The translations under genes were made by a program, and so were the position numbers. The notes beneath the pieces were generated by a model that was not told the origin of the DNA, searched no databases, and saw nothing but the letters and a program-made list of their open reading frames with translations. From assembly GCA_963768855.1 (NCBI GenBank), contig CAVYJM010000006.1:1-64000 (forward strand): a stretch of DNA of 64,000 nucleotides. The letters are read 5' to 3'. Positions 26,008-51,160 of this stretch are shown in pieces. The stretch is from an uncultured Thermoplasmata archaeon. GTDB lineage: Archaea > Thermoplasmatota > Thermoplasmata > RBG-16-68-12. The first letter of the stretch is position 1. Every line of letters begins with the position of its first letter.

Positions 26008-26175
26008 TCCGCACAACGCGCATTACCCCTCACCCCATGGGAGAGGGAGTTCGCTCGCAGCCGTTGTTCGGGCGTCCCCTCTCCCCCATCCGCATTCGCT
26101 CGCGAATGCGGACGCTATAAGTTGCAAGCTCGCCAAGGCGAGCTTGCTGAGAGGGACAGGGTGAGGGGTAACGCC
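26008..26175. repeat. Family A repeat, copy 4, with a nested two-hairpin cassette (26087-26147)
   Basis: ATTACCCCTCACCC ... GGGTGAGGGGTAAC. The second hairpin loop is replaced by CATCCGCATTCGCTCGCGAATGCGGACG-CTATAAGTT-GCAAGCTCGCCAAGGCGAGCTTGC. Confidence 0.85.
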
Positions 26176-26226
26176 CTATGAGCATGAACTCAATCTGCCG
26201 GCTCAAAGCGATAAGAGTGCGGTGCC

Positions 26227-27042
26227 ATGAAGCGTGTTTTGCTGACGGGAGCGGGCGGGGCGATCGGGACGCGGCTGCGGAAGCTGTTGGCGGCGCATTA
26301 CGAGCTTGTCCTCACCGATCTCGCTCCGCCTTCCGGCCTTGAGCCGCAAGAAGCGTTCATCGCCGCGGATCTGGCGGACGCAGGCTCCATCGAACGCGCC
26401 GTCGCCGGGGCGGAGGGGATTGTGCATCTCGGCGGGCAATCCGTCGAAGCCCCCTGGGAGACAATTCTTCACTCCAATATCGCGGGCACTTACAATCTCT
26501 TCGAGGCAGCCCGGAAGCACGGCGTCAAACGCGTGGTCTTCGCCTCCTCGAACCATGTCGGCGGCTTCTATCCGCGCGAGCAAACCATCGGCACGGAGGT
26601 TCTGCCGCTGCCTGACACGCGCTACGGGGTCAGCAAGGCTTTCGGCGAGGCGCTCGGCGCGCTCTATGCTCACAAATACGGCCTCGGCGTGCTGTGCATC
26701 CGCATCGGCAATGTCGCCGATGTCCCGGCGGACGAGCGGCGGCTTGCCATCTGGCTGAAGCCGGAAGACCTGGTTTCCCTCATCCGCATTGGCCTCGAAC
26801 GCGAGGGCCTCGTTTACGAGGTGGTCTACGGCATGTCCGATAATGCGCGGGCATGGTGGGACAATTCGCGGGCGCGCGAGCTTGGCTACAGCCCCGAGGG
26901 GCGCTCGGAGGAGTTCGCGGCGGAAGCGCTCGCGGCCCAGGCGAAGCTGCCGCCCGATGAGGTAGGCGCGGCCTTTCAGGGCGGGGACTTCTGCTCGCAA
27001 GAATTTGAAGGCCAGTTGAGCCGCATTCTGCGCAAGTCCTAG
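26227..27042 (+). CDS. NAD-dependent epimerase/dehydratase, uronate dehydrogenase-like
   Basis: LLTGAGGAIG, FASSNHVGGFY, YGVSK, LCIRIG. Confidence 0.85.
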   Translation: MKRVLLTGAGGAIGTRLRKLLAAHYELVLTDLAPPSGLEPQEAFIAADLADAGSIERAVAGAEGIVHLGGQSVEAPWETILHSNIAGTYNLFEAARKHGVKRVVFASSNHVGGFYPREQTIGTEVLPLPDTRYGVSKAFGEALGALYAHKYGLGVLCIRIGNVADVPADERRLAIWLKPEDLVSLIRIGLEREGLVYEVVYGMSDNARAWWDNSRARELGYSPEGRSEEFAAEALAAQAKLPPDEVGAAFQGGDFCSQEFEGQLSRILRKS

Positions 27043-27072
27043 CGCATTTTCATTCAACGTTCAGTCGCCAGT

Positions 27073-27155
27073 TGTCATGCCCGCGTCTGCCAGCGTCCAT
27101 ATAAGGGCTTGTTCCGCCAATGTTATTATGGATACCGCGCCTCGCGGGAATGACG
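27073..27155. repeat. CGTC-type palindrome (family B, copy 2, degenerate)
   Basis: TGTCATGCCCGCG...TCCAT ... ATGGATACCGCGCCTCGCGGGAATGACG. Confidence 0.7.
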
Positions 27156-27347
27156 ATCTTAGGCTCAAGCCCGGTCTAAAACTCTTTAGGCCCCAATCGT
27201 CCGCATTGTGACTTTTCATGCCAAAGGCCGGCTATCCAAGCGCCTTTGCGCTGTGTCATATTGGCGCGGTTCCGGGTAGCGCCCCAATCAAACTCATTAC
27301 AAGAACGGCGCGCCCGCGAGTTTCGTGAACATTGGAGGAACGCACAC

Positions 27348-27833
27348 ATGCCGGAAATTACCATGGTGGTGAACGGCAAGCCTGTTCGCGCGGATGTGCC
27401 GCCGAACATGCTGCTGGCCGAATTCTTACGGCAGAATCTGGGGTTGACCGGAACGCATGTTGGCTGCGACACGTCGCAATGCGGCGCATGCACCGTCCAT
27501 ATGAACGGCAACTCCGTTAAGTCTTGCACCACGCTGGCCGTCCAGGCCGATGGCGCACACGTCACCACCATCGAAGGGCTTTCCTCCGGCACGGACCTGC
27601 ATCCGGTGCAAGCCGCGTTCCGCGAGGCCCACGGCCTGCAATGCGGCTTCTGTACGCCGGGCATGATTATGTCCTCGGCCGACCTGCTGCAGAAAAATCC
27701 CAATCCCAGCGAGCCCGAGATACGCACCTGGCTCAAGGGCAACATCTGCCGCTGCACCGGCTACCATAACATCGTGAAGGCCGTGGAGATGGCCGCCGAT
27801 GCGATGAGCAGCGTGCGCAAGGCGGCGGAATAG
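27348..27833 (+). CDS. coxS: CO dehydrogenase/xanthine dehydrogenase-family small [2Fe-2S] subunit
   Basis: [29 protein letters not shown]. Confidence 0.93.
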
Positions 27834-27848
27834 GGGCGGGAGGACAAC

Positions 27849-30231
<2,383 letters not shown>

Positions 30232-30242
30232 GGAGAAGGACC

Positions 30243-31052
30243 ATGAACAACTTCGACTATGTACGTCCTTCATCCGTCGCCGCCGCCGCGCAGGCTCTCT
30301 CCGCGGCGAACGCAACGGCTCTCGCGGGCGGTCACACGCTGATACCGACGATGAAGCAGCGGCTTGCCAAGCCGTCCATGCTCGTCGATCTCGGCGGCAT
30401 CGCTGAGCTGAAGGGCATCCGCCGGGAGAACGGCACGCTCGTCATCGGCGCCACAACCACCCATGCGGAGGTGGCGTCGAGCCAGGAGGTGCGCAAAGCC
30501 ATCCCGGCGCTTGCCAAGCTCGCCGATGGCATCGGCGACGCCCAGGTCCGCCATCGCGGCACCATCGGCGGCTCGGTCGCGAACAACGATCCAGCCGCGG
30601 ATTATCCCGCCGCGGTGCTGGGGCTGGGCGCGACCATCGTCACCAACAAGCGCCAGATCGAAGCGGATAAATACTTCACGGGCCTGTTCTCCACGGCGCT
30701 GATGCCGGGCGAGATCATCGTCTCGATCCGCTTCCCCATCCCCGAGCGCGCCGGCTACGCGAAGTTCGAGCAGCGGGCCTCGCGCTACTGCCTGGTGAGC
30801 GTGTTCGTGGCGAAGGGCAAGGGCGGCTTGTTCTCCTCGGGCGAGGTGCGCGCCGCCGTCTCGGGCGCTGGCTCCAATGGCGTGTTCCGCGTTCCGGCGA
30901 TGGAGCAGGCGCTGAAGGGCAACTTCTCGGCCGATGCCTTGCGCGGCGTGAGCGTTCCGGCCGCGGGGCTGATGAGCGACATGCACGGCAGCGCCGATTA
31001 CCGGGCCTCTCTCATCGGTGTCATGGCTCAGCGGGCTGTATCGGCGGCATGA
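30243..31052 (+). CDS. coxM: CoxM-type FAD-binding medium subunit
   Basis: LAGGHTLIP.MKQRLA, VRHRGTIGGSVA..DPAADY. Confidence 0.92.
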   Translation: MNNFDYVRPSSVAAAAQALSAANATALAGGHTLIPTMKQRLAKPSMLVDLGGIAELKGIRRENGTLVIGATTTHAEVASSQEVRKAIPALAKLADGIGDAQVRHRGTIGGSVANNDPAADYPAAVLGLGATIVTNKRQIEADKYFTGLFSTALMPGEIIVSIRFPIPERAGYAKFEQRASRYCLVSVFVAKGKGGLFSSGEVRAAVSGAGSNGVFRVPAMEQALKGNFSADALRGVSVPAAGLMSDMHGSADYRASLIGVMAQRAVSAA

Positions 31053-31993
31053 CGGAGGCAGTTCCAAATAGCGTTGCAGAAACGTCCCGCTTACTGGCCA
31101 AGGGAGGCTACCTGCCCAGCGACGCCCTGGCAGCCTCCGTGTTCCTCGCCCTCAAGCTGCAACGACCCCTGCTGCTTGAGGGCGAGGCGGGCGTCGGCAA
31201 AACCGAAGTAGCCAAGGTGCTGGCGGCCGTGCTTGGCCGGCCGCTGGTGCGTCTGCAATGCTATGAGGGGCTGGACCTTTCGACCGCCGCTTACGAGTGG
31301 AACTACAGCCGGCAGCTTCTGCATATCCGCGCGTCGGAGGCTGCCGGGCATGTTAGCACCGCAAGCTTGGAGCGCGATCTTTATAGCGAGAGCTATCTGC
31401 TCAAGCGTCCTTTGCTGCGGGCGCTTGAGCTATCGGCGGAAGGCAAGGCGCCAATTCTGTTGATCGACGAACTCGACCGCGCGGACGAGCCGTTCGAGGC
31501 GTTTTTGCTGGAGGTGCTCGCCGATTACCAGATCACGATCCCCGAGCTTGGCACGATCCGCGCCGCTGAGCCTCCCATCACGATCCTGACCTCCAACAGG
31601 ACGCGGGAAGTTCACGACGCGGTTCGGCGCCGCTGCTTCTATTGCTGGATCGATTACCCTTCGGCCGCGCGCGAAGCCGAGATCCTGCGGCTCAAGCTCC
31701 CGGAGGCGCCCGCGGCGCTCACGGCGCAGATCGTGGGCTTTGTGCAGTCGATCCGCCAGATGGACCTCTACAAGAGTCCCGGCATTGCGGAGACCATCAA
31801 TTGGGCGCAGGCGCTGACCTCGCTCGACTGCGTGGCGCTCGATCTTGAGGCGGTGAATTCGACGCTCGGCACGCTCTTGAAATATCAAGACGATATCGTC
31901 CGCATCCAAGGCAGCGAGGCGGCGCGGCTGTTGGAGCAGGTGAAATCGCGCGCGCGGGAGGCGGCGTTTGCGGCGGAGGGGGATTCCGCTTAA
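31049..31993 (+). CDS. coxD: MoxR-family AAA+ ATPase (CoxD-like)
   Basis: LLLEGEAGVGKT, LQCYEG, LLIDELDRAD, TSNRTREVHDA.RRRC. Confidence 0.9.
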   Translation: MTEAVPNSVAETSRLLAKGGYLPSDALAASVFLALKLQRPLLLEGEAGVGKTEVAKVLAAVLGRPLVRLQCYEGLDLSTAAYEWNYSRQLLHIRASEAAGHVSTASLERDLYSESYLLKRPLLRALELSAEGKAPILLIDELDRADEPFEAFLLEVLADYQITIPELGTIRAAEPPITILTSNRTREVHDAVRRRCFYCWIDYPSAAREAEILRLKLPEAPAALTAQIVGFVQSIRQMDLYKSPGIAETINWAQALTSLDCVALDLEAVNSTLGTLLKYQDDIVRIQGSEAARLLEQVKSRAREAAFAAEGDSA

Positions 31994-32018
31994 ATATAGA
32001 GGTTGGGATCGCAGCCGG

Positions 32019-32117
32019 CGTCATCCCGGAACCGCCAGAGGCGGTATCCGGGATCGTTACAAGCGCCGGCATGTGTTACGATCCCGGATAAGCGCTAAAG
32101 CGCTTTCCGGGATGACG
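32019..32117. repeat. CGTC-tagged palindrome (family B, copy 3)
   Basis: CGTCATCCCGGA...TATCCGGGATCGT ... ACGATCCCGGATA...TCCGGGATGACG. Confidence 0.85.
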
Positions 32118-32144
32118 CAAACAGGTGCAATCGGGATCGCGAAA

Positions 32145-32442
32145 ATGGACCGGGCCACAATCGTCGAGCGCATCAAGTCCAAGGAGGCGGCCATCCGCAA
32201 GGAAGGCGCCACGCACCTCTATTTGTTCGGCTCGCGTGCGCGCGGGGACAATAAGCCAACCAGCGATTTGGATGTGCTATGTGGATTACGATTCATCAGG
32301 CAAGTTTAGCATCCTTGATCTAGTCGGCATAAAGCTGTTGTTGGAGGATGAACTTAGCCTAGACGTTCATATCACCACAAAAAATAGCCTGCATCCGAAG
32401 TTAAAAAACGATATAGAGGCGCAATCCATTTGCGTGTTTTGA
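32145..32442 (+). CDS. Minimal nucleotidyltransferase (MntA-like antitoxin), indel near 32277
   Basis: LYLFGSRARGD..PTSDLDV, continuing in ORF 32125-32442 as YVDY...SLHP.LK..IE.Q.I.VF. Confidence 0.82.
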
Positions 32443-32790
32443 ATGCAACGTGATATCAGTGTCGTCCTTGGGGAAATCGTTGAAGCTATCGATATTGCAA
32501 TCTCTATCTGTTCGAAGCTGAATTTAGATCAGTTCCGCAGTAGCAAAGTTGAAAAGCTGGCAGTCCAAAGAACGATTGAAATAATTTCCGAAGCTGCACG
32601 GCATCTTCCCCAGGAAGAGCTGGAAAAATATCCAACTGTTCCTTGGCGGCAGGTGAAGGCCATGGGCAACGTTTTGCGTCACGAATACCATCATTTGAAC
32701 GACAAGATTATCTGGGATGTAGTCCGCGACGAGCTGCCAGACCTGATAGCAAAAATTCTGGAAGGAAACCCGCAGCTTCGAGAGGGCTGA
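32443..32790 (+). CDS. HEPN (DUF86/HepT-like) ribonuclease toxin
   Basis: AVQRTIEIISEAA..LP, PWRQV..MGNVLRHEY, IIWDVV..LP; noticeably AT-richer than the flanking genes. Confidence 0.87.
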   Translation: MQRDISVVLGEIVEAIDIAISICSKLNLDQFRSSKVEKLAVQRTIEIISEAARHLPQEELEKYPTVPWRQVKAMGNVLRHEYHHLNDKIIWDVVRDELPDLIAKILEGNPQLREG

Positions 32791-32794
32791 GGCG

Positions 32795-33988
32795 ATGGCT
32801 AGGCCGCTCGACGCAAATATCGTGACCGCGCAGGCCGATGGCGGGCGCATCGCCGCAAACATCCTGGGCTTCGCGCGGGTGCTGCGCTCGGCCGGGATGC
32901 CAATCGGCACGCAAAAGGCGCTTGAGGCCGTGGATGCGGTGGTCGCGGCCGGCCTCACCGACCCGAAGATCTTCTACTGGACTTTGCACGCCGTTTTCGT
33001 GAGCCGTCCCAACGAACGCGAGATCTTCAACCAAGCCTTCCACCTGATCTGGCGCGATCCGGGCTACATCCAGCAGCTTCTGTCGGTGATGGTGCCGAAT
33101 TTGCGCAATTCGGGCGCGCCGCGTGACGCCATGGCGCGGCGGCTGGCGGACAGCCTGTTCCTCCGCCAGGGGGCCGAGCACGCCGTCGAGCGCGATGAAA
33201 TGCAGATCGATGCGAGCGGCTCGGCAAGCGAGCTTGAGGTGCTCGCCTCGAAGGACTTCGAGCAGATGACCGCGGATGAGCTTCGGCTTGCCCGTGCCGC
33301 CATGGCGGATTTGGCGCAGCGTCTCGCCAAGCGCAACACGCGCCGGTTCTCGCTGGGCGGCACCGGCGGCGGAAGGCGGCTGGACCTGCGGCGCATGTTG
33401 CGGCAGGCCGGCTCGCGCGGCCCGGAGGCCATGCTGCCCCTGTTCAAGGAACGGCAGCGGCGCGCGCCCCCGCTCGTGGTGATGTGCGATATCTCCGGCT
33501 CGATGGACAGCTACGCCCGCGTGTTCCTGCATTTTCTCTACGCGCTTATCAACGGCGGCGAGCGCGTGCACGCCTTCCTGTTCGGAACGCGGCTCACCAA
33601 CGTGACGCGCATCTTGCGCGACCGCGATCCCGACACCGCGATGGCCAAGGCGACCGGCACGGTTCACGACTGGTCCGGCGGCACGCGCATCGGCGAAAGC
33701 CTCCACACCTTCAACAAAATCTGGGCGCGGCGGGTGCTCGGACAGAACGCCACCGTGCTGCTGTTCACCGATGGCCTCGACCGCTCCGGCGGCGAAGGCA
33801 TTTCGCGCGAGGCCCGGCGGCTCAGCGCTTCCTGCCGGCGCCTCATCTGGGTCAATCCGCTGTTGCGCTACGACGGCTACGCGCCGTTGGCCGCCGGCGC
33901 CGCCGAACTCGACCGCTATGTGAGCGAGATGCGTCCCTGCCACAATTTGAAGAGCGTCGCGGGCCTTGCCGCCGCCCTGGCCGGTTAA
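32795..33988 (+). CDS. coxE: CoxE-like VWA-domain protein
   Basis: F.RVLR..G...G, RLDLRR.LR, MIDAS VMCDISGSM, WSGGTRIG, LFTDGLD, WVNPL. Confidence 0.9.
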   Translation: MARPLDANIVTAQADGGRIAANILGFARVLRSAGMPIGTQKALEAVDAVVAAGLTDPKIFYWTLHAVFVSRPNEREIFNQAFHLIWRDPGYIQQLLSVMVPNLRNSGAPRDAMARRLADSLFLRQGAEHAVERDEMQIDASGSASELEVLASKDFEQMTADELRLARAAMADLAQRLAKRNTRRFSLGGTGGGRRLDLRRMLRQAGSRGPEAMLPLFKERQRRAPPLVVMCDISGSMDSYARVFLHFLYALINGGERVHAFLFGTRLTNVTRILRDRDPDTAMAKATGTVHDWSGGTRIGESLHTFNKIWARRVLGQNATVLLFTDGLDRSGGEGISREARRLSASCRRLIWVNPLLRYDGYAPLAAGAAELDRYVSEMRPCHNLKSVAGLAAALAG

Positions 33989-34009
33989 GGGATCGAGACC
34001 AATCCGCAT

Positions 34010-34116
34010 CGTCATCCCGGAAACGCCGAAGGCGCTATCCGGGATCTTTAAAGCGGCGCTTTTTGCGATCCGCGTCTGCGCACCAGCATTTCATGCTGCA
34101 ACGCGCACGGGATGAC
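34010..34116. repeat. CGTC-tagged palindrome (family B, copy 4)
   Basis: CGTCATCCCGGAAACGCCGAAGGCGCTATCCGGGATC ... CACGGGATGAC. Confidence 0.78.
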
Positions 34117-34283
34117 ACCGGCGGATCGGCGCCCGCGCCTGCAAATGGCTTATCGCCTCTCCCTCTGAGTAATAATTAGCGCCAGATGCCGGGCATTTGA
34201 GCCGTCGCGTTAGCGGATATCTTAGGCTTGACCACTCATTATGCTCGCGGATTAATCTTCCGGCACCAAGCAAGACGGCCAAG

Positions 34284-35534: not shown

Positions 35535-35580
35535 GCGGTAATCGGTGCATTACGCCAAATCCCGGTTGAATGGTTCGGCA

Positions 35581-35690
35581 AAAGACCCCCTCACTCTGTC
35601 TCTCTCCCCGCCAGCTCGCAAAGGCGAGCTGGCATCTCAGCGTGGCCGCATCCGCAAGCGGATGCGGCTGGGAGAGAGGACCCCAGAATA
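35581..35690. repeat. Family A repeat, copy 5 (degenerate right half) with nested cassette (35610-35668)
   Basis: AGACCCCCTCACTCTGTCTCTCTCCCC-[GCCAGCTCGCAAAGGCGAGCTGGC-ATCTCAGCGTG-GCCGCATCCGCAAGCGGATGCGGC]-TGGGAGAGAGG. Confidence 0.8.
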
Positions 35691-35844
35691 TCCGCAGCGG
35701 ACAATTCTGGCGTCCCTTCTCCGTCCGCATCCTCAAGCGGGCGATACTAGAGAGGAGCTCGCCAGGCGACTGCTGGAGGGCGGTGCGTTTTGCGAACCAT
35801 TCAACCGGGATCTGGCAATTGGCGCCAATAGCCTTGATCTTGCG

Positions 35845-39780: not shown

Positions 39781-39927
39781 GACCCCCTCACCCTGTCCCT
39801 CTCCCCGTTGGGGCGAGGGGACGCCAGAATGGTCCTCTCACCTTGGATGAAGGGCCGCAGCCTGACTCCCTCTCCCATCCATATCCGCTAGCGGATATGG
39901 ATGGGAGAGGGCTGGGGTGAGGGGGAC
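39781..39927. repeat. Family A repeat, copy 6, inside the che operon, with a 22-bp hairpin in the second loop
   Basis: GACCCCCTCACCCTGTCCCTCTCCCC ... CCCTCTCCCAT-[CCATATCCGCTAGCGGATATGG]-ATGGGAGAGGG...GGGTGAGGGGG. Confidence 0.85.
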
Positions 39928-39958
39928 TTCCCGCGATTCCAGAAGCTCTGGACAAACT

Positions 39959-42490: not shown

Positions 42491-43039
42491 TCATGCAGCT
42501 TGCTGCACCTCGCTCAACTGCGAGGCAGACTCGCCGCGCCCGCGCGCAAGCAACTCATCGAGGGCCAGGATCACCACCATGGTTTCGTTGACGGGGATGA
42601 TGCCCGAGAGGAAATCCGCCGAATGGCCGCATTCGGCCTCGGGAACGGGGCAGATCTGGCTGCTGTCGATGGTGAGGATGTCCGACACCGCATCGACCAG
42701 GAGGCCCGCCATGCGGTCCTGCGCGGCCACGATGATGATGGCGTGCGAGCGGGAGGCCTCGGTGAGCCCCATGCCGAACCGGCAGCGCAGATCGTAGACC
42801 GGGACGATGATCCCGCGCAGGTTCATCACGCCCAGGATGTAGTCCGGCTGGTTCGGCAGCGGCGTCGTGTCCGTCCACCCTTTGATTTCGCGGACGGCCA
42901 TGATGTCGATGGCGTAACCTTCTTCGCCGATCTTGAAACTGATGAACTGCTTGATGCCGCCGTTTTTTGCTGTAACCAGCCCTGCTGGCGGCGCTTCCGC
43001 GGATTGAACCGCTAGAGTTGTTGTCATTGCTGTCTCCAT
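42491..43039 (-). CDS. cheW: Chemotaxis coupling protein CheW
   Basis: FISF.IGEE.YAIDI..VREI, LGVMNLRG.IVPV.DL, GLLVDAVSDI. Confidence 0.95.
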   Translation of the reverse strand: METAMTTTLAVQSAEAPPAGLVTAKNGGIKQFISFKIGEEGYAIDIMAVREIKGWTDTTPLPNQPDYILGVMNLRGIIVPVYDLRCRFGMGLTEASRSHAIIIVAAQDRMAGLLVDAVSDILTIDSSQICPVPEAECGHSADFLSGIIPVNETMVVILALDELLARGRGESASQLSEVQQAA

Positions 43040-43049
43040 CCGGGATTAA

Positions 43050-45185
43050 TTAGGCTGACGCGTGGACTTCCTCTGCCGTGGGTGCACGCGCTCTTTTTGA
43101 ATAGCTTCTGGACTTGCCTGGCATCGGCCCGTCATCCGCCGGCGCGGCGGCTTCGGGCACGGGCTCGCACACGGTTTCCTCCGCCCACTGCCGCTCCGGC
43201 AGTCTGCAAAGCCCGTCAAGATCGAGTATGAGCGCCACCCGGCCATCGCCCAGGATGGTTGCGCCCGAGATGCCGCGGACGGCATCGAAGTTTTCCAAGA
43301 GGCTTTTGACCACGACTTGCTGCTGGCCGATCAGTTCGTCGACGACGAGCCCCGCCTTGGAGCCGTTCTCGCTTTCGATGACCACCACCAGGGCTTTCCA
43401 CGGGTCGGGAACCTTGCCCTGAACATTCAGGACGCGATGCAGCGAAATGAGGCGGATGTATTCGCCGCGGATCGCCGCGACCTTGGTTCCGCCCGAAAGG
43501 GTGCGGACCTGGTTCTTGTCGGGGCGGATGCTCTCAACGATGCTGCTGAGGGGAAGGATATATTTCTCCTCGCCGGCCGCGACGAGCATCCCGTCCAGCA
43601 CCGCCAGCGTGAGCGGGATCACCAGCGTGAAGCGCGTGCCTTTTCCGGGCGCCGTTTGGATTTGGATGCGGCCGCCGATATTGGTGATGTTGCGCCGGAC
43701 GACATCCATGCCGACGCCGCGCCCAGAGATTTCGGTGACCTTTTCCGCCGTCGAAAAGCCTGGAGCGAAAAGCAGATTGTAAACTTCGTCGTCGCTGAGC
43801 TTCTGGTCCTCGCGGACGATGCCCTTGGCGATGGCGCTCCTGAGCACCTTCGCGCGGTCGATGCCCGCGCCGTCGTCGGCGATGGTGATGAGGATATTGC
43901 TGGCGCGCTGCGACGCGGAAAGCTCGATGGTCGCTTCCTCGGGCTTGCCGGCGGCGCGCCTTACCTCATCGTCCTCGATGCCATGGTCGATGGCATTACG
44001 GATCATGTGCGTAATAGGGTCCGCAAGCTCCTCGATGACGGTCTTGTCCACCTCGGTTTGATCGCCGGAGGTGACGAGCCGCACTTTCTTGCCAAGCTTC
44101 GATGAAATATCGCGGACCAGCCGCGGCATGCGCGCGAACACGGAGCGGACCGGCTGCATGCGGATCGCCATCACGCATTCCTGCAATTGCCTGGTCTGGG
44201 CCGCCAGCTCCTCGCTGCCCTTGCTCCATTGATGACGCTGCCCGCCGCCGCTCTCGGAGAGTTGCTGCGCGAGCATGGCTTGCGTGATGACGAGTTCGCC
44301 AACCATGTTCACGAGCCGGTCGACGCGCGCCAAATCGACCCTGATGGATGTCGAGCCCTTGGACGCGGGGATGCCGCCGCCATGCAGATCGGGGTTGGCA
44401 GGGTCTGGCGCGGCTGCCCCTTTCTCGTGCCCGCTTGCGGCTTCGTGCTTGACGCCCGCCTCTTCTATTTGGAGGAGGCATTCCTCATCGACGAACTCAA
44501 ATACCTCGGCCACGGCGGATTTGGGTGCCTTCGTGGTGAGGTGAAAGACGAAAGACAGGTAAGCGGCCTCGGGATCGAGATGGGTCAAGTCGGGCAATTT
44601 GGATGTGTCGCATTCGACCTGCAGCTTGCCCAAGTGCTTGAGCTCCCGGATGAGCAAAAGCGGCTCGTTTGCGTGGCGGAAAAGCTCGCGGTGCGGCTCG
44701 AAGACGATCCGGTAGGTATGAGTGCGTTCCGCGGCTTCGCGATGAGCCTTCGCCGGAGCGCTTCCGGCCGGCGTCTCCGGCGTGCCAAGCAGCTCATGAA
44801 GCTCCGACATGACGCTGTCGCCGAAATCGGAAGGCAGGGCGCGCGAGGACCGCGCGGCGTCCACCAGCTCCGCCAAAAGGTCCGCGCCGCGCACGACCGC
44901 ACTGAAAACCTGCGCGTTCCGCTGAATGCGATTGCTGCGCAGCCGGTCCAGCAACGCCTCGAAGACATGCGCGAACTTTACAAGCTGGGTGAAATTGAAT
45001 GCCGCGGCGCCCGCCTTGATCGAATGGACCACGCGGAAAACCGCATTCAAACCCTCGCTGTCGATGTTTCCCGCCTGCAAGGAAGGCAGGCGCTCTTCGA
45101 GATCCTGCAGAAGTTCGGTGCACTCCTCGAAAAATGTCGCTTGGAAGCGCTCCGTATCGGCTAACGTCGGTGCAGTGGCGGACAT
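43050..45185 (-). CDS. cheA: Chemotaxis histidine kinase CheA (upstream TTG at 45200 is also possible)
   Basis: HPT FRVVHSIKAGA, SIRVD..RVD.LVNMVGELVI, HMIRNAIDHG, SGRGVGMDVV, CheW-like domain. Confidence 0.97.
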   Translation of the reverse strand: MSATAPTLADTERFQATFFEECTELLQDLEERLPSLQAGNIDSEGLNAVFRVVHSIKAGAAAFNFTQLVKFAHVFEALLDRLRSNRIQRNAQVFSAVVRGADLLAELVDAARSSRALPSDFGDSVMSELHELLGTPETPAGSAPAKAHREAAERTHTYRIVFEPHRELFRHANEPLLLIRELKHLGKLQVECDTSKLPDLTHLDPEAAYLSFVFHLTTKAPKSAVAEVFEFVDEECLLQIEEAGVKHEAASGHEKGAAAPDPANPDLHGGGIPASKGSTSIRVDLARVDRLVNMVGELVITQAMLAQQLSESGGGQRHQWSKGSEELAAQTRQLQECVMAIRMQPVRSVFARMPRLVRDISSKLGKKVRLVTSGDQTEVDKTVIEELADPITHMIRNAIDHGIEDDEVRRAAGKPEEATIELSASQRASNILITIADDGAGIDRAKVLRSAIAKGIVREDQKLSDDEVYNLLFAPGFSTAEKVTEISGRGVGMDVVRRNITNIGGRIQIQTAPGKGTRFTLVIPLTLAVLDGMLVAAGEEKYILPLSSIVESIRPDKNQVRTLSGGTKVAAIRGEYIRLISLHRVLNVQGKVPDPWKALVVVIESENGSKAGLVVDELIGQQQVVVKSLLENFDAVRGISGATILGDGRVALILDLDGLCRLPERQWAEETVCEPVPEAAAPADDGPMPGKSRSYSKRARAPTAEEVHASA

Positions 45186-45206
45186 GTTGGCGGCTTTCAA
45201 TGGATT

Positions 45207-45572
45207 TTAGGGGCAGACCTTGTTGACGACCTGAAGCAGCTTGTCGGGCGCGAAAGGCTTGACGATCCAGCCGGTGGCGCCGGCCTGCTTGCCCGCCTGC
45301 TTCTTGTCGTCGCCGCCCTCGGTGGTCAGGATCAGTATCGGAATGGCTTTGAATTTCGCCTGCGCGCGGAGCTGCTTGACCAGCGTGACGCCGTCCATGT
45401 TCGGCATGTTGATGTCGGTGATGATCGCGTCGACGCTCGTCTTGCCAAGCAGGGCGAGCGCCTTGACGCCGTCCTCGGCTTCGAAGACTTCGAAGCCCGC
45501 GCCCTTCAGCGTGAAGGCAACCATGTCCCGCATGGTCTTCGAATCGTCGACGGTCAGTATCCGCTTAGCCAT
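45207..45572 (-). CDS. cheY: Chemotaxis response regulator CheY
   Basis: ILTVDDS, ITDINMP, LTTE, GWIVKPF. Confidence 0.95.
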   Translation of the reverse strand: MAKRILTVDDSKTMRDMVAFTLKGAGFEVFEAEDGVKALALLGKTSVDAIITDINMPNMDGVTLVKQLRAQAKFKAIPILILTTEGGDDKKQAGKQAGATGWIVKPFAPDKLLQVVNKVCP

Positions 45573-45873
45573 TCGCCGCTCTCCACTCGCTTAACTGGTT
45601 TGGAAGGCCGAGGCTCTCGAACGCTTCCTGCAGGGCCGGCGAAGGACTGGTAAGAATGAGCTTGCCGCCGCTGGCTAGCGCGCTTTGCGAGGCCGCAAGC
45701 AGAACTTGCACGCCCGGCGTCGATACCTGGTTGATTTTGGAGCCGTTCAGCCGCAGCACGGGGCTTTGCTCAAGGGCGCCCGCGAGGCTGTCCTGCAGTT
45801 CCTGCACATTACCGATATCCAGAATCGCCGGTAGCGTGAGCGCCTTGGCCCGCTGCCGTGGTGCCGCCTTCAT
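45565..45873 (-). CDS. STAS-domain protein heading the che operon
   Basis: L.LP..LDI..V.EL..L...L....L.L.G..I..V.T.G.Q.LLAA; overlaps the cheY start. Confidence 0.8.
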   Translation of the reverse strand: MKAAPRQRAKALTLPAILDIGNVQELQDSLAGALEQSPVLRLNGSKINQVSTPGVQVLLAASQSALASGGKLILTSPSPALQEAFESLGLPNQLSEWRAANG

Positions 45874-45912
45874 GCCGAAGCCTCATTGCTTGCAATATTC
45901 CGCCAGCCGCAG

Positions 45913-45927
45913 GCAGATGGTATGCCA
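45913..45927 (-). promoter_or_regulatory. Candidate sigma54 -24/-12 promoter of the che operon
   Basis: TGGCATACCATCTGC (GG-N10-GC), 40 bp upstream of the STAS start codon. Confidence 0.45.
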
Positions 45928-46151
45928 TCCGCACTTGCAACCTTCAGTATATGTAGCGGGCAATGTTTAACCGCAGGTTTCGGTGGAAACTAAAGGACTT
46001 GGCATACGCACGGTTTCTCAAGCCCGGATCAAGGCACGCCAGTCAAATCAGCAAAATGTGCGAGGCGTCACGGCTTTACTTCGGAGGGGACCGTAAATAT
46101 TACTCGGCGTTAACCATTTGGCGCGGCCGAAATAGCACGCTTGGCTGGCCG

Positions 46152-46502
46152 TCAAGGCCGGGCTGGCGGCGGTGGGATATCACCGTGGCGGCGTGGAATC
46201 AGATGGACATGGGCGTGCAGGATCTTCTGCCCCGCTGCTTCGCCGATATTCGAGCCAAAATTAAATCCCGCGACGCTTGGATCGAGCCGCTCGATCTCTT
46301 GGCGGCATTGCTGGGCAATCGCGTGGATGGCCTCTCGTTCTTCTTCGCTGGCCGCGAAAATATCGGTGACATGCCGCTTGGGGATTATGAGAGTGTGGAG
46401 CGGCTTAATGGGAAACTTGTCGCGAACCGCAAACGCCAGCCGGTTTTCCGCGATAACTGTTAGCGCCCGGAAGTCGCAGAATGTGCAATCACGCTGGGGC
46501 AT
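46152..46502 (-). CDS. HIT-family nucleotide hydrolase
   Basis: CTFC zinc motif, LIIPKRHV, NIGEAAGQ, HAHVHLIPR histidine triad. Confidence 0.92.
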   Translation of the reverse strand: MPQRDCTFCDFRALTVIAENRLAFAVRDKFPIKPLHTLIIPKRHVTDIFAASEEEREAIHAIAQQCRQEIERLDPSVAGFNFGSNIGEAAGQKILHAHVHLIPRRHGDIPPPPARP

Positions 46503-46616
46503 CTTGGCTGCTCCCTATCTCCAAAAGCCGGCAGCGGCGCCAGGCCGCTGAAATGAGAATTACTCAAACCGTGCCGGTCTGTATAGAGGTAGGCGATATT
46601 GAAGGGTGTGGGGCGC

Positions 46617-46725
46617 ATGTTTGGAAGGATGCTCGCCGTATGCGCGGCGCTGTTTTTCGGGCTCGGCCCGGCGTAGCCCGGCCGGGTGGCGCTCGTCATC
46701 GGCCAGAACGCCGCCTATTGCCGCG
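46617..46725 (+). pseudogene. Possible relic of a secreted caspase-like (peptidase C14) gene
   Basis: MFGRMLAVCAALFFGLGPA*PGRVALVIGQNAAY: a signal-peptide-like segment, an in-frame TAG, then an RVALVIG..Y motif. Confidence 0.4.
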
Positions 46726-46733
46726 GCGCAAAT

Positions 46734-47081
46734 TTAGCAATCGTTGGCTGCGAGTTCTGCGCGGCAGGCCTCGTAGAGTAATGGCAGGTCGTGCCTGACC
46801 ACGTGCCAAAGCACATCGTAGGCAACGCGTTCGTAATCGTGCCGGATGATGTTGCCGATACCTGCCACTTTCGGCCAGGGGATTTGCGGGTGGCGCTGCT
46901 TGAGACCGGCGTCGAGATGGCGGCTTGCTTCGGAAATAATCTCGATACCGCGTTCAACCAGCCAGCGTTTGCGCATATCGGTTGCGAAGGCTTGGAGAGT
47001 AACCTCAGCCATTTCGCCATCGATGAGCTCGATAGCGTCCACGATATCGGCCAAGCGAAGATTTTGAGACCGTTCGCCCAT
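46734..47081 (-). CDS. HEPN (DUF86/HepT-like) ribonuclease toxin
   Basis: LVERGIEIISEASRHL, PWPKVAGIGNIIRHDY, VLWHVV..DLP.L; coupled to the upstream gene by a TGATG overlap. Confidence 0.88.
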   Translation of the reverse strand: MGERSQNLRLADIVDAIELIDGEMAEVTLQAFATDMRKRWLVERGIEIISEASRHLDAGLKQRHPQIPWPKVAGIGNIIRHDYERVAYDVLWHVVRHDLPLLYEACRAELAANDC

Positions 47082-47374
47082 CAGAATATCTGGAGGGCCG
47101 AGGCTTCTATACGCTGTTTCAGCCGCGGATGCAGGCTGCGGCGCGTCATGATATCGGTTTTGCAACCCAGAAAACGCGCCGCGGCGGCCTTAACGTCCAT
47201 CAATTGAAAGAGCCCAAGAGACCCTTCCGGATGATCGAAAAACAGGTCCACGTCCGAGTCCTCGCGGGCCTCGCCGCGCACCGTGGAGCCGAACAGGTAC
47301 AGATGCTCGACGCCCAGCTGTTTAAGGTCGGGCTCGTGCTGCTTCAATCGTGAAATGACTTCGTCGCGCGTCAT
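47081..47374 (-). CDS. Minimal nucleotidyltransferase (MntA-like antitoxin)
   Basis: LYLFGSTVRGEAREDSDVDLF...TRRSLHPRLK.RIE. Confidence 0.9.
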   Translation of the reverse strand: MTRDEVISRLKQHEPDLKQLGVEHLYLFGSTVRGEAREDSDVDLFFDHPEGSLGLFQLMDVKAAAARFLGCKTDIMTRRSLHPRLKQRIEASALQIF

Positions 47375-47406
47375 GACTAACTTTAGCATGATCGCGGGCC
47401 GTTTTG

Positions 47407-48607
47407 CTACGGGGCGGATGCGCCGGCTTCGGCGAGCGCCGCGAAGCCGCGTTCGAGGTCGCGCTTCAGGTCTCCCACGTCCTCCAGGCCGATGTGCAGG
47501 CGCAGCGCGGGGCCTTCCGCCTTCCAAGCGGTGGCGGTGCGCGCGGCGGTGCAGTCGAACGGCACGATAAGGCTCTCGAACCCGCCCCAGGAATAGCCCA
47601 TGCCGAAGATTTCGAGCGCGTTCAGCATGCGCTGGACGGCCTGCTTCGAGCACGGCCTCAGGATGATCGAGAACAGGCCGGCCGCGCCCTTGAAGTCGCG
47701 TTTCCAAAGCTCGTGGCCGGGAGCGCCGGGCAACGCAGGATGCAGGACTTCCGCGACCTCCGGCCGGGCGCGCAGCCACGCCGCGATATCGAGCCCCGAC
47801 CGCCAATGCCGCTCCAGGCGCACCGCCAGCGTCCGCAAGCCGCGCAGCGCCAGGAAGCAATCCTCGCCATTGGCGCACAGCCCGTATGCCTCATGCGTCG
47901 AGGCGATGGCCGCCGCGGCCGGCTCGTCGCAGATGATGGCGCCGAGCAGCGCGTCGGCGTGGCCCACGATGTATTTCGTGCACGACTGGATCGAGATGTT
48001 CACCCCGTGCTCGAAGGCCGGGAAATAAAGCGGCGTGCCCCAGGTGTTGTCGATGGCCACGGGCACGCCCTTAGCCCGGGCCGCCTTGCAGATCGCGGGG
48101 ATGTCCTGGACCTCGAAGGTTTGCGAGCCGGGCAATTCCGTGAGGACCAGCTTTGTGTTGGCGCGAAGAAGCGCGGCGATGCCAGCGCCGGCCAGCGGAT
48201 CGTAATATTCGACCTCAACGCCCATCCGCTTGAGCACGCGCCCTGCAAAGCGCCGCGTCGGATAATAGACGCTATCGGCGATCAGCATATGGCCGCCGGC
48301 TTCGGCGAAGGTCAGCAGCGTTGTCGAAATGGCGCTGAGCCCGGAGGGCGTGAGAAAGGTCCGCGCGCCCCCTTCGAGTGTTGCGAGCGCCGTTTCGAGC
48401 GCGCGCGTGGTGGGATTCGACGGGCGGCCATAGGTATACTCGACCTCGCGCGAACTCGAGCGTTTCCGCATCGGGGAACAGCACGGTCGAGCCCCGGAAC
48501 ACGGGCGTGTTGACGAACCCATGATAGGCGCTGGGCTTGCGGCCGAGCCGCGTCAGCGCTGTTTCAACATCGAAGCCGCCCGCGTCTGCCTTGTCATCGC
48601 TTCCCAT
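47407..48607 (-). CDS. metC: Cystathionine beta-lyase (indel near 48450)
   Basis: VNTPVFRGSTVLF, YGRPSNPT, DNTWG.PL, QSCTKYIVGHAD, GYSWGGFESL, LRLHIGLED. Confidence 0.93.
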
Positions 48608-48806
48608 GCCCGGCCTTCCAAAAGAATCGTGTTTGCGTTGCGGTGCATGATACCGGTCTTGGATTGGCCGTGCACCCCTGCTTTCGCCTTTGCCGCGCCA
48701 GCCAGCCGGCCGGTTTCATCCACAGTTGCCGGCGATTGCCGTTTGCCGCGCCCCAGCTTGCCGCTTATGCTTGGCTTTCCCGCGGAAATAGCAGAGAGAG
48801 GGAGCG

Positions 48807-49274
48807 ATGGACCCGGACTTGGTGCGCGAGCAGGCCGAAGCCGAACGCGAAGCCTTGGCGCTGCTACGGAAAAAGCCGGCTGGGCCTGCGCCTGCAAATG
48901 CTGCCTCTATTCCGTATGCGATCCTGGCAGACGCCGTTCAAGACGCAGCGCCGCCTCCGCATGAAGAACCGGCGGCCATCCCCGCCATGACGGCGCTTCA
49001 GGCGCCTGCCGCCGCCTTGCCAGACGCGCAGCCGCCTGAGCCGCAAGCAGCGCCTGCTCCCCGGCGCGAGGGGCTTTCCATGGCGGCACGGCTTGGGCGG
49101 TTCATTTCGTTCGGCCTTGCCGGCGCAATGCTCGGCGGCGGGCTTGGCATCGTGGCGGCGAACTACATGCAGCTTCCGGCGGATTTGGCGAAGCTCGCGA
49201 TCTTCGGCCCCGCCGCAGTTCTTGCGGGGGCCTGCGCCATCGCGTCTCTCTTTGCGGAGGCGTCTTACGAATAG
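48807..49274 (+). CDS. Hypothetical protein: Pro/Ala-rich N-terminus and two C-terminal transmembrane helices
   Basis: 155-aa ORF with high-GC codon usage, a GGAG SD, and hydrophobic segments FISFGLAGAMLGGGLGIVAA and LAIFGPAAVLAGACAIASLF. Confidence 0.6.
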   Translation: MDPDLVREQAEAEREALALLRKKPAGPAPANAASIPYAILADAVQDAAPPPHEEPAAIPAMTALQAPAAALPDAQPPEPQAAPAPRREGLSMAARLGRFISFGLAGAMLGGGLGIVAANYMQLPADLAKLAIFGPAAVLAGACAIASLFAEASYE

Positions 49275-49325
49275 TGGCAGGCGCGAGGATGCGGGAACCT
49301 TACACCAAGCCGCAGTATGCGTGGC

Positions 49326-49483
49326 TTACCCCTCACCCTGTCCCTCTCCCGGCAAGCTCGCCTTGGCGAGCTTGCAACTCAACGTGGCCGCATCCGCAAG
49401 CGGATGCGGCGGGGAGAGGGGACGCCTTCTCAACGGGCACACCTTCCCCTCTCCCCTCGCGGGAGAGGGCTGGGGTGAGGGGG
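49326..49483. repeat. Family A repeat, copy 7, with nested cassette (49352-49410)
   Basis: TTACCCCTCACCCTGTCCCTCTCCCG-[GCAAGCTCGCCTTGGCGAGCTTGC-AACTCAACGTG-GCCGCATCCGCAAGCGGATGCGGC]-GGGGAGAGGG ... GGGTGAGGGG. Confidence 0.87.
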
Positions 49484-49493
49484 CTTTTTCCTG

Positions 49494-50834
49494 CTAAGGC
49501 CGTGCGTCGAGCGGCACGTAATCGCGCAACGTCTCGCCGATATAGAGCTGGCGCGGCCGGCCGATCTTTTGCTCCGGATCGGCGATCATTTCCTTCCACT
49601 GGGCGATCCAGCCCACCGTGCGCGCGATGGCGAACAGCACCGTGAACATCGAGGTCGGGAAGCCCAGCGCCTTCAGCGTGATGCCGGAATAGAAGTCGAT
49701 GTTCGGATAGAGCTTCTTCTCGATGAAGTATTCGTCCTCAAGCGCGATGCGCTCAAGCTCCATCGCCACCTGCAGAGAGCGGGTCGTTCTTGATGCCGAC
49801 GATCTCAAGCACTTCCTTGCAGGTCTTCTGCATCACCCGCGCGCGCGGATCGTAGTTCTTGTAAACTCGGTGCCCGAAGCCGCTCAGGCGGAAGTTGTCG
49901 TTCTTGTCCTTCGCGCGCTTGATGAACTCGGGGATGCGGTCGACCGTGCCGATCTCCATCAGCATCTTGAGCGCGGCTTCGTTCGCGCCGCCGTGCGCCG
50001 GGCCCCACAGGCAGGCGATGCCGGCCGCGATGCAGGCGAACGGGTTGGCGCCGGAGGAGCCCGCCAGCCGCACCGTCGAGGTGGAGGCGTTTTGCTCGTG
50101 ATCGGCGTGCAGGATCGAAGATGCGGTCCATCGCCCGGCTCAGCACCGGGTTGACCTTATATTCCTCGCTCGGCACCGCGAACGTCATGTAGAGGAAGTT
50201 CGAGGCGTAATCGAGTTCGTTCCGCGGATAGATGAACGGCTGCCCGATGGAATATTTGTAGGCCATCGCGGCGATGGTCGGCATCTTGGCGATCATGCGG
50301 ATCGAGGCGATGTCGCGCTGCACCGGATCGGTGATGTCGATGGAGTCGTGATAGAAGGCCGACAGCGCGCCGACCGTGCCGATCATGACGGCCATCGGAT
50401 GCGCGTCGCGGCGGAACCCGGAGAAGAACCGGTTCATCTGCTCGTGCGTCATCGTGTGGTAGGTGACGCGGTTCTTGAAGTCCAGATATTGCTGCTTGCT
50501 CGGCAGGTCGCCGTACAAGCAGGATGTGGCAGGTTTCGAGGAAGTTGCCTTGCTCGGCAAGCTGCTCGATGGGGTAGCCGCGATAGAGCAGGACGCCCTT
50601 GTCGCCGTCGATGTAGGTGATGTCGGATTTGCACGCGGCCGTCGACGTGAAGCCGGGGTCGTAGGTGAACGCGCCGGATTGGCCATAGAGCTTCGATATA
50701 TCGAGGACATCGGGGCCGACGCTGCCGGAGAATACCGGAAGCTCGTACTGCTTGTTGTGCAGCGTGAGCGTCGCGGAACCGGTCTGCTTAGCCGCCTCTT
50801 GCTTATGCGACGTGTTAGGATCGATGGAGCTCAT
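49494..50834 (-). CDS. gltA: Type II citrate synthase (several indels)
   Basis: [35 protein letters not shown] (reconstructed across an indel), [28 protein letters not shown]. Confidence 0.95.
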
Positions 50835-50995
50835 GCCCTTCTCCTAGTGGAATGCAGAGGGCGCGGCATAGGCGCGCACACGGGCGGAAATTGACACGGC
50901 TTGTGCCAAATTTGCTAGTCCAATTTTGCAGTGCACTATAAATGTGCAACTGCACAAGTTCGTGTGCCGCCGGCCCTGGCGTGGCGTGTGGAAAT

Positions 50996-51160
50996 CCCCC
51001 CTCGCTCTGTCTCTCCCCGCGCAAGCACGCCTTGGCGTGCCTGCAACTCAACGTGTCCGCATCCGCAAGCGGTTGCCGAGAGGGTACGTGCCCTATCCGC
51101 AAGGTAGAGCGTAATTCTGGGGTTCCTTCTCCCCTTGCGGGAGAAGGACAGGATGAGGGG
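50996..51160. repeat. Family A repeat, copy 8, with a degenerate nested cassette (about 51021-51076)
   Basis: CCCCCTCGCTCTGTCTCTCCCC-[GCAAGCACGCCTTGGCGTGCCTGC-AACTCAACGTG-TCCGCATCCGCAAGCGGTTGC] ... CCTTCTCCCCTTGCGGGAGAAGGACAGGATGAGGGG. Confidence 0.8.

Follow-up and report, generated by a model that had tools for sequence, protein, structure and literature searches.

A two-hairpin cassette in loop 1 of BoxC/PIT/TMECO-type repeats from Rhodomicrobium-like Hyphomicrobiales

The repeats of the window and their source

The window, by which we mean the whole 64,000-nucleotide stretch of DNA analyzed here, contains a series of intergenic repeats (family A), several of which hold a cassette of 57 bases in a hairpin loop (Table 1). 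Its two hairpins, A (GCAAGCTCGC-CTTG-GCGAGCTTGC) and B (GCCGCATCCGC-AA-GCGGATGCGGC), are separated by a linker of 11 nt. For either hairpin, dinucleotide shuffles give an expectation of 0 matches by chance. The preliminary description placed all of the cassette copies correctly, and it was also right about the single related hairpin of copy 6 and about the insertion sequence that occupies the same apex position in copy 1. The latter element (~21117-22529) matches DDE_Tnp_1, and its ends (GCTACGG.../...CGTAGC) are unrelated.

Table 1. Repeat copies and cassettes of the window, with the state of orthologous sites in other genomes.
Feature	Position	Strand	Description	Orthologous site
Copy 1	21039..22557	+	95-bp doublet interrupted in right-half loop 1 by an insertion sequence of DDE type (IS4/IS5-like)	G001 (98% identical): intact, empty, 95 bp
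Copy 2	23160..23258	+	reference empty 95-bp BoxC/TM doublet	
Copy 4	26026..26168	-	composite element, inverted; far half-unit without a and b blocks	G001 816100-816260; same intergenic site in G033: empty 95-bp doublet
Copy 4 cassette, alpha type	26089..26147	-	hairpin B TCCGCATTCGC/GCGAATGCGGA; hairpin A 26124-26147	
Copy 5	35586..35722	+	left half-unit of class P3 (CCCCCTCACTCTGTCTCTCTCCCC), cassette-bearing, and the spacer	G001 825690-825850
Copy 5 cassette, beta' type	35610..35668	+	hairpin A variant GCCAGCTCGC/GCGAGCTGGC, 35610-35633; exact hairpin B 35645-35668	
Decayed mirrored cassette, copy 5 right half	35723..35780	-	outer arm decayed too	G001: pristine empty half-unit
Copy 6	39783..39925	+	doublet; single B-like hairpin 39879-39900 in right-half loop 1	identical in G001; whole element missing in G032, G033, G035, G036
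Copy 7	49329..49485	+	BoxC/TM inverted doublet; cassette in left half-unit loop 1	G032: empty doublet, left half of a different arm class
Copy 7 cassette, beta type	49352..49410	+	hairpin A 49352-49375, linker, exact hairpin B 49387-49410	
Copy 8	50997..51163	+	doublet, left half with decayed cassette	G032: cassette in right half instead; G001: 3.2 kb extra DNA
Copy 8 cassette, decayed	51021..51078	+	hairpin A 51021-51044, CACG/CGTG variant; hairpin B 3' arm broken	

The copies differ in detail. The copy 5 cassette has an A:U to C:G covariation at pair 16:35, and the remnant in its right half reaches a local alignment score of 30, compared with 21 for the best of 300 shuffles. In copy 8, hairpin A takes the variant form GCAAGCACGC/GCGTGCCTGC and has one mismatch; in copy 6, CCATATCCGC-TA-GCGGATATGG is the sole hairpin in the loop. 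Folded as single-stranded DNA, copy 7 is predicted to form the branched structure that had been proposed (-64.8 kcal/mol, z = -10.2). Copy 4 had been read as a cassette reversed in the other hairpin of the doublet, and here the reading was mistaken: it is the entire composite element that is inverted, and on the minus strand it has the order arm, hairpin A, linker, hairpin B, c', spacer (GACGCC...), as in copy 7 and many copies elsewhere.

The window is not part of the genome under which it is filed. The first ~146 kb of its contig (C6) are foreign: they share 98% identity with a Rhodomicrobium-like MAG of 6.3 Mb that has ~97 cassettes. A search of the rest of the 2.87-Mb MAG that holds the window finds neither the cassette nor family A. 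An Rfam search of the window reports tRNA only. Could the nesting then be a matter of repeats mis-assembled in a metagenome? The location of the window invites this suspicion, since the 146-kb segment around it is chimeric or foreign and the MAG has 7.7% contamination. However, the same composite elements are found at orthologous positions in G001, an independent assembly with megabase contigs; such elements are also present in 10 or more further MAGs that different studies produced, and we reject an assembly artefact as having practically no chance of being correct.

The host repeat

Judged by its sequence blocks, each family A repeat is made of two units of the BoxC/PIT/TMECO intrastrand-triplex motif, joined as an inverted doublet (Bergler 1992; Hoyne and Maher 2000; Holder et al. 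2015, PMC4666352), so that the "undescribed system" of the preliminary description has a known repeat for a host. The published BoxC/TM pattern comprises three blocks, CCCTCNCCC-N3-6-GGGNGAGGG-N3-GGGNGAGGG (PMC4666352). The half-units here have the layout a-b-c-loop1-c', which is CCCTCACCC-NNN-CCCTCTCCC-loop-GGGAGAGGG, and the empty ones follow the three-block pattern, as can be seen at 23160-23258 and 24744-24861 of the window. (A first arm pattern, one base too long, caught a different subfamily and was rejected.) Copy 2 and an element in the E. coli phnP-yjdP intergenic region share 73% identity over 103 nt, and partial matches to the family A doublet, at 80-95% identity, occur in 1995 E. 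coli genomes.

Cassette-bearing copies have a loop 1 of 55-65 nt, or of up to ~800 nt in the case of arrays, instead of the 3-6 nt of the strict pattern, and on this comparison of patterns they are a variant that lies outside it. The published motif search considered loops of 1-6 nt only (PMC4666352), and it would miss them.

The repeats here share with BoxC/PIT/TMECO the pairing of two loop-2 types in inverted doublets (CAG/CTG with TGT/ACA here, CGG with TTA in the E. coli counterpart), the intergenic location, and loci that rearrange between close relatives; TM loci are reported to be hyper-rearranged between E. coli strains (PMC4666352). On the other hand, loop 1 here can hold the 57-nt two-hairpin module or arrays of it in place of 3-6 nt, and the doublets differ in their high copy number and in being embedded in a larger MITE-like unit that has additional outer layers of inverted repeats. 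We counted 35 doublets per 200 kb; extrapolated to a genome of 6.3 Mb, this would come to roughly a thousand.

Position and structure of the cassette across genomes

We collected 116 cassettes from at least 11 species. As had been inferred from the window alone, the cassette keeps almost entirely to family A apices: 99 of the 116 lie in loop 1 with both arms present, 10 belong to 57-bp tandem arrays within loop 1, and in 7 one of the arms is decayed, which leaves about one cassette on its own. Apex length is bimodal, either 4-8 nt or 55-65 nt, and in an unbiased sample of 350 kb we find 10 of 73 half-units filled (14%). The longest tandem array has 14 units of 57 bp at 98% identity, which brings loop 1 up to ~800 nt.

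Orientation within a half-unit is fixed, with hairpin A toward the outer arm and hairpin B toward c', and in some doublets each half has a cassette, one the mirror image of the other (for instance, G001 907375-907584). Two orientations and two loops had been taken as a sign of independent insertions, an argument that fails because the doublet is dyad-symmetric and the orientation within the half-unit does not vary.

Both stems are kept by compensatory change, as the few copies of the window had already led one to think. In an alignment of 108 cassettes, 97.7% of cells are paired and 11 of the 21 base pairs have changes on both sides; this level of covariation is reached by none of 500 shuffles, and slid controls are only 27-37% paired.

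The cassette is limited to a narrow clade; the TM motif is widespread. A BLAST search of the cassette against 5,426 E. coli genomes reports no match, and for lack of any such match we rejected homology of hairpin B to the E. coli REP. Our searches of the literature on Rhodomicrobium with REP and on nested REPINs found no earlier description of the cassette, which by itself does not prove that there is none. The host repeat is long known.

Linkage to the host, junctions, and turnover

How tightly is the cassette tied to its host? Cassette subtype is linked to the arm class of the host (Cramér's V 0.63; chi-square 80, p = 3e-15). An alignment-based Mantel correlation gives r ~0.25 (p = 0.001). 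We use the alignment-based version since ungapped identities were too noisy, due to 1-nt indels in the linker. The junction signature also differs by subtype, and the c block is truncated in all alpha copies. This linkage, together with the subtype-specific junctions, points to a few founder composites. Each subtype is nonetheless found on two to four arm classes, and spacers are 63% identical beside cassettes vs. 62% in empty copies (the cassette itself is 83% conserved). Spacers beside cassettes being as diverse as those of empty copies, the coupling to the rest of the host appears to be loose.

The filled and empty loops that the preliminary description had suggested looking for do exist, as cassette differences at orthologous sites between genomes that are 98% and 80-89% identical. 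But at orthologous sites of 98%-identical genomes, swaps of whole half-units and spacers are as frequent as gains or losses of the cassette, which means that ectopic conversion would explain the filled/empty pairs without any cassette-specific transposition. At one site, C6 82966 vs. G001 879322, the difference is confined to the apex, with an otherwise conserved left arm and spacer, and this is also the picture expected of site-specific insertion. The junctions that we examined carry no target-site duplication.

We looked for excision of 49349-49411 in Logan contigs (word shares ≤0.27), and found none at the locus. The contig joints that skip this interval have sides of ≤23 nt with 3-7 other letters in between, which identifies them as contigs of other, empty TM copies and not as excision.

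Genes near the repeats

A nuclease or HUH gene flanked by the cassette had been suggested as a partner, and we find no such gene. None of the 7 PF01797 (Y1/HUH) genes of G001 has an adjoining TM arm or cassette hairpin. These seven loci contain a single TM copy, which is >1 kb from the gene (L129) and looks incidental. The hairpins that do flank PF01797 genes are unrelated to the cassette, and we rejected a HUH/RAYT partner. No cassette flanks a nuclease gene at the DUF559 loci of G001, G032, G033, and G035.

The host motif, by contrast with the cassette, does bracket a gene. In 6 of 6 loci in these four genomes, a DUF559 gene lies between inverted TM units whose a block is toward the gene. 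None of the bracketing units carries a cassette, and the pairing concerns the host motif only. The nuclease may have some role in the biology of the repeat. Our searches of the literature on DUF559 with repeats found no earlier link to BoxC, which does not establish that none exists.

Origin and spread of the cassette

We think that the cassette is probably a clade-specific expansion module for loop 1 of the BoxC/TM motif in Rhodomicrobium-like Hyphomicrobiales, one that has spread with its host and by recombination. It would have arisen a few times, with at least three founder junction types, and would travel along when a composite unit is copied. Ectopic gene conversion or template switching via the near-identical c and c' blocks may then add the cassette to copies or strip it from them, and the same process would swap entire half-units and spacers. 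Slippage would amplify the cassette into the 57-bp tandem arrays. The compensatory changes imply that the folded form, whether single-stranded or cruciform, matters for retention or copying. Conversion is our proposal for how cassettes are exchanged, and it has to contend with the short homology available (c blocks of 9-12 bp). The expansion module itself has against it the subtypes found on several arm classes, the loose coupling to the host, and the apex-only difference at C6 82966.

Another reading is that the cassette is a separate unit, non-autonomous, and inserted by a trans-acting enzyme at a given site and orientation into BoxC/TM loop 1, making it a parasite of a repeat. The preliminary description had proposed a second, minimal mobile unit. 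The part that stands is a discrete module at apices, nearly exclusive to loop 1, in constant orientation relative to an asymmetric half-unit, present on all arm classes and in orthologous filled/empty pairs, better conserved than the adjoining spacers, and sometimes filling a doublet twice in mirror image. The mobility is another matter, and independent jumping is not demonstrated. Subtypes are tied to arm classes and have their own junctions, which argues for a few founder events; target-site duplications are absent; neither the seven Y1_Tnp genes nor the DUF559 genes of four genomes have a cassette; whole half-units swap at an equal rate; and the tandem arrays point to slippage. The preliminary description had held that descent of all cassette-bearing copies from a single insertion would speak against mobility, and a few founder composites, to which the subtype linkage (V = 0.63) and the junctions point, come close to that. 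We consider such a mobile unit unlikely. A gene-less parasite of the homing type is quite improbable: breaks at empty loops would be repaired from filled copies, the candidate nuclease being the Vsr-like DUF559 enzyme, encoded in these genomes between TM units, and the cassette would shield its own site and spread by biased gene conversion. Such homing would account for the exclusivity to loop 1, the fixed orientation, the filled/empty alleles, and the rapid exchange of modules. Very improbable, in our estimation, is a structure selected for its function at each site, as RNA or DNA (stem-loops that stabilize or attenuate transcripts, or a protein-binding site), with spread as a secondary effect. 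The strong covariation in both hairpins and the intergenic sites, often between convergent genes, are in its favor, and REP/BIME and boxC are reported to be transcribed and have been cited for transcription attenuation or mRNA stabilization (PMC3738161). But neither hairpin is followed by a T-run, BoxC/PIT showed no promoter or terminator activity (PMC4666352), and decayed copies together with presence/absence differences between 98%-identical genomes weigh against a site-specific function.

It is 30 years since BoxC/PIT/triplex-motif repeats became known. That loop 1 tolerates from 57 nt to ~800 nt of extra hairpins with the three blocks intact constrains which folded form is selected. The exchange of half-units, spacers, and cassettes at orthologous sites in genomes 2% apart is a natural system for measuring ectopic conversion, and the DUF559-TM pairing is present in four genomes.

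Comparison with other repeat systems

Several known systems resemble this one in part. Like the REPINs of REPIN-RAYT systems, the repeats are inverted doublets of a hairpin-forming sequence with a short spacer; they number in the hundreds and are passed on vertically in a clade. The difference is in the gene: REPIN-RAYT systems have one single-copy gene for a Y1 (HUH) transposase, with the repeat on its flanks, and here none of the seven such genes in G001 is flanked by the repeat or the cassette, with a DUF559 nuclease gene flanked by the host motif instead. Terminal inverted repeats matching a resident IS together with a target-site duplication, the marks of IS-derived MITEs, are not found.

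The BIMEs of enterobacteria are likewise mosaics in which palindromic units of several types are combined through linkers that vary, with a two-hairpin unit amplified in tandem (14 × 57 bp here, BIME-2 arrays there), with strain-to-strain variation, and used as targets by insertion sequences. By the BLAST search of E. coli genomes the cassette has no sequence similarity to the E. coli REP, and hence no homology to enterobacterial REP/PU, and it has no associated RAYT; and while BIME units stand side by side, here one unit is nested in the loop of another.

ERIC/IRU elements and nested MITEs have larger variants that result from internal insertions at fixed sites. The resemblance is that of a short palindromic form next to a long form with an internal block at a fixed position. 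They are unrelated in sequence, and the insert described here differs in that it sits at a hairpin apex, is itself made of two hairpins, and can be amplified.

The cassette and its host repeat

The two-hairpin cassette is real and non-random. The hairpins that the preliminary description read in four copies of the family A repeat are present in the form it gave them (see table), as a 57-bp module of hairpin A, linker and hairpin B, and dinucleotide-preserving shuffles lead us to expect no chance match to either hairpin. We also see, as described, a single hairpin alone in copy 6 (39879-39900), and an insertion sequence (~21117-22529, Pfam DDE_Tnp_1) exactly within the hairpin loop of copy 1. 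In a genome 98% identical, the copy 1 doublet has an empty, intact ortholog of 95 bp. A tRNA gene lies ~80 bp downstream of an empty doublet, copy 3 (24744-24861).

The empty 95-bp element reads [CCCCTCACCC-CAG-CCCTCTCCCC]-AT-[GGGAGAGGG]-spacer-[CCCCTCTCCC]-AT-[GGGGAGAGGG-ACA-GGGTGAGGGG], and both halves match the published pattern of the triplex motif TMECO, CCCTCNCCC-N3-6-GGGNGAGGG-N3-GGGNGAGGG, known earlier as BoxC or PIT and reported at 3610 occurrences in 262 proteobacterial genomes (PMC4666352). In E. coli K-12 these motifs (TM units here) sometimes occur as inverted pairs uniting two types of loop 2; they have neither promoter nor terminator activity, and their loci are more rearranged between strains than controls (PMC4666352). 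Window positions 23150-23270 are 73% identical over 103 nt to a doublet between E. coli phnP and yjdP that shares their architecture. Given the pattern fit and this alignment, the host repeat belongs to a known family, itself unexplained. Thus the suggestion of an undescribed system does not apply to the host. The cassette fills the first loop of that repeat. The published search admitted loops of 1-6 nt only (PMC4666352), so that cassette-bearing copies could not have been seen.

Doublets are flanked by outer inverted repeats in the window (35560-35585 and 35795-35815) and at many other loci, examples being CCGGTTGAATGGTTCGGCAAAAGA / TTTTGCGAACCATTCAACCGG and GTGATCCGCACAACGCGCATTA / TAATGCGCG. 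These layers imply a repeated unit longer than family A, with several terminus families.

Distribution of the cassette and origin of the window

A cassette-only pattern scan, with one genome per species, returned at least 116 stretches. The carriers are MAGs of at least 11 species, under the labels Rhodomicrobium sp., Hyphomicrobiales or uncultured Alphaproteobacteria, and one of them, the 6.3-Mb "uncultured Alphaproteobacteria" MAG MFD06085.bin.1.7 (G001), alone has 97 matches with at most 2 mismatches. The cassette is absent from 300 genomes sampled evenly across the order of G001, from 5,426 E. coli genomes and from the PLSDB plasmids; the empty TM half, searched in the same plasmids, matches Azospirillum, Rhizobium, E. 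coli and other records.

Is the cassette confined to the apices of family A, as had been proposed? Among the matches listed there are 116 non-duplicate copies, 99 of them lying in loop 1 between two recognisable arms, 10 as members of tandem arrays within such a loop, and 7 with one arm decayed or truncated. For one copy among these matches, at locus L047, no TM unit can be recognised by eye. The apices of 385 half-units fall into two length groups, 4-8 nt and 55-65 nt, and an unbiased 350 kb holds 59 empty half-units, 10 with a cassette-sized loop and 4 others. The longest array reported, inside one TM loop, repeats the 57-bp unit 14.0 times with 98% identity (L018 1550-2346, MAG MFD09495.bin.1.3); shorter ones are seen at L097 and L114.

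The organism that the window describes is Rhodomicrobium-like. Contig C6, which carries the window, is foreign over its first ~146 kb to the assembly filed as Thermoplasmata (G000): GC content there is 0.61-0.62 vs. 0.67 in the rest of G000, and the tetranucleotide profile correlates with that rest at r = 0.79, when every other contig reaches at least 0.92. Most of C6 4-87 kb is syntenic with contig C4 of G001 at 97-98% identity, and the window genes have only 63-71% identity to same-genus relatives of G000, among which 0/30 genomes carry the cassette. Within G000 itself (2.87 Mb, 24 contigs, estimated contamination 7.7%), family A arms are confined to 21-120 kb of C6, and the cassette has 4 occurrences, every one within the window. 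Either C6 is a chimeric contig, or a large transfer took place very recently. Everything noted on this window thus concerns another, Rhodomicrobium-like organism and not the archaeon of G000.

Fold and orientation

Compensatory changes in the stems had been noted in a few copies, and they extend to the whole set: the stems of 108 cassettes are paired in 97.7% of cells, and 11/21 pairs change on both sides, with 115 cells of double-sided change. None of 500 shuffles scores as high, and slid controls are 27-37% paired. Rare variants of hairpin B have wholly different stems and perfect pairing, for example ATCGCGTTTGC/GCAAACGCGAT. The branched structure that had been envisaged is also predicted for copy 7 as single-stranded DNA (-64.8 kcal/mol, z = -10.2).

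The order within an asymmetric half-unit is invariant: a-b-c, hairpin A, linker, hairpin B, c'. Copy 4, said to carry the cassette reversed in its other hairpin, is instead an entire composite inverted, with spacer polarity as in copy 7. Therefore the argument that two orientations and two loops mean independent insertions fails for the window. Outside it, either half of a doublet may be filled, always in mirror image, and doubly filled mirror-image doublets exist (G001:C4:907375-907584, 210 bp). A symmetric element at L008 (~2622-2740) runs P2 arm, hairpin A, hairpin B, inverted hairpin A, P3 arm (P1, P2 and P3 are arm classes of half-units); its inner c'-spacer-c is missing and hairpin B is the dyad centre.

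Turnover at orthologous sites

The table compares C6 with G001 and the further genomes G032, G033 and G036.

Features in contig C6 and the state of orthologous sites
Feature	Position in C6	State in C6	Other genomes
Hairpin A, GC[A/C]AGCTCGC-N4-GCGAGCT[T/G]GC	26124-26147, 35610-35633, 49352-49375, 51021-51044		
Hairpin B, GCCGCATCCGC-AA-GCGGATGCGGC	35645-35668, 49387-49410	exact match	
Hairpin B, ATTC/GAAT type	26089-26112		
Hairpin B	51056-51078	decayed	
tRNA gene	24937-25008	Rfam, 67.9 bits	
Doublet with normal apex CCCC-AA-GGGG	82966-83080	empty	G001:C4 879322-879490, cassette variant
Copy 4		filled	G001 filled; G033 empty
Copy 5, right half		decayed mirrored cassette	G001 half-unit pristine, empty
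Copy 6		entire doublet	missing from four genomes
Copy 7		filled, P1 arm	G032 empty with P2 left half; G033, G036 without element
Copy 8		cassette in left half	G032 in right half
Doublets	23162-23256, 61789-61884		G001:C4 813248-813349, 856402-856496, half-unit (P1 to P2) or spacer replaced

Filled and empty versions of the same loop are found (C6 82966, copies 4 and 7, and the right half of copy 5). At C6 82966 the left arm and the spacer are conserved in G001, and the class of the right half-unit has changed from P2 to P3. When half-unit classes are swapped between 98%-identical genomes, all three blocks are altered and compensated, which points to ectopic conversion and not to point mutation. 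Every module turns over fast, and gain or loss of the cassette is one instance. Published observations that TM loci are unstable (PMC4666352) agree with this, and such turnover speaks for ectopic conversion or template switching; cassette-specific transposition is less likely.

TM doublets seem to be preferred sites of insertion. G001:C4 has extra insertions at 811474-812614 (1.1 kb, IS-like, inverted ends), 841440-844621 (3.2 kb) and 854379-855407 (1.0 kb), beside or inside doublets whose window counterparts (21037, 51018-51106, 60800) have no insertion or a different IS.

How the cassette spreads

Hairpin B defines three cassette subtypes, ATTC, ATCC and ACCC, and the subtype goes with the arm class of the host (chi-square 80.4, p = 3e-15, Cramér's V 0.63). 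In Mantel tests based on alignments, the cassette correlates with the arm at 0.26 and with c' plus spacer at 0.25 (p = 0.001 each). Junctions differ by subtype: nearly all 43 ATTC-type copies have a truncated c block (CTCTC+GG/AG) with AT+G4-5, most ATCC copies CCC+G with CT+G2-3, and most ACCC copies C+GCG with AC+G4. Linkage, Mantel correlations and junctions are evidence for a few founder composites. There is also evidence that the coupling is loose: each subtype sits on two to four arm classes, and spacers vary no less beside cassettes (63% identity) than in empty copies (62%), when the cassette itself is conserved at 83%.

The cassette is a clade-specific loop 1 module of BoxC/TMECO, held in a BIME-like mosaic that recombines rapidly. 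It would co-propagate with its host composite, with ectopic conversion and slippage in addition, and this combination is probably what explains it. A minimal mobile unit inserting at hairpin tips had been proposed. The loop 1 position and the pairs of filled and empty loops agree with that proposal, but independent insertion does not fare well: subtype-arm linkage and subtype-specific junctions point to a few founders, and whole half-units and spacers are replaced at orthologous sites too, which makes site-specific mobility of the cassette's own unlikely. Spread of a homing type, driven by a TM-directed nuclease, seems to us quite improbable.

The nuclease or HUH gene that might have been flanked by the cassette does not appear: 0/7 Y1_Tnp genes of G001 adjoin a TM unit or cassette hairpin, and the TM units at six loci of DUF559 (PF04480, Vsr-like) are all without cassette. 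At these six loci (6/6 in the Rhodomicrobium-like genomes G001, G032, G033 and G035; L147-L152), inverted TM units bracket the gene tightly and turn their a-block (GGGTGAGGGG) toward it, as at L150 (gene at 1480-1890), and we found no DUF559-BoxC link in the literature searched. At L151 (1437-1484, 1832-1887) and L152 (1315-1362, 1718-1773), small GC hairpins, GGCCGC-ATA-GCGGCC and GGCGCCCGGC-CTTG-CCGGCCGCC, are nested in loop 2. Nesting within TM loops is thus not unique to the cassette, and either loop is able to host extra hairpins.
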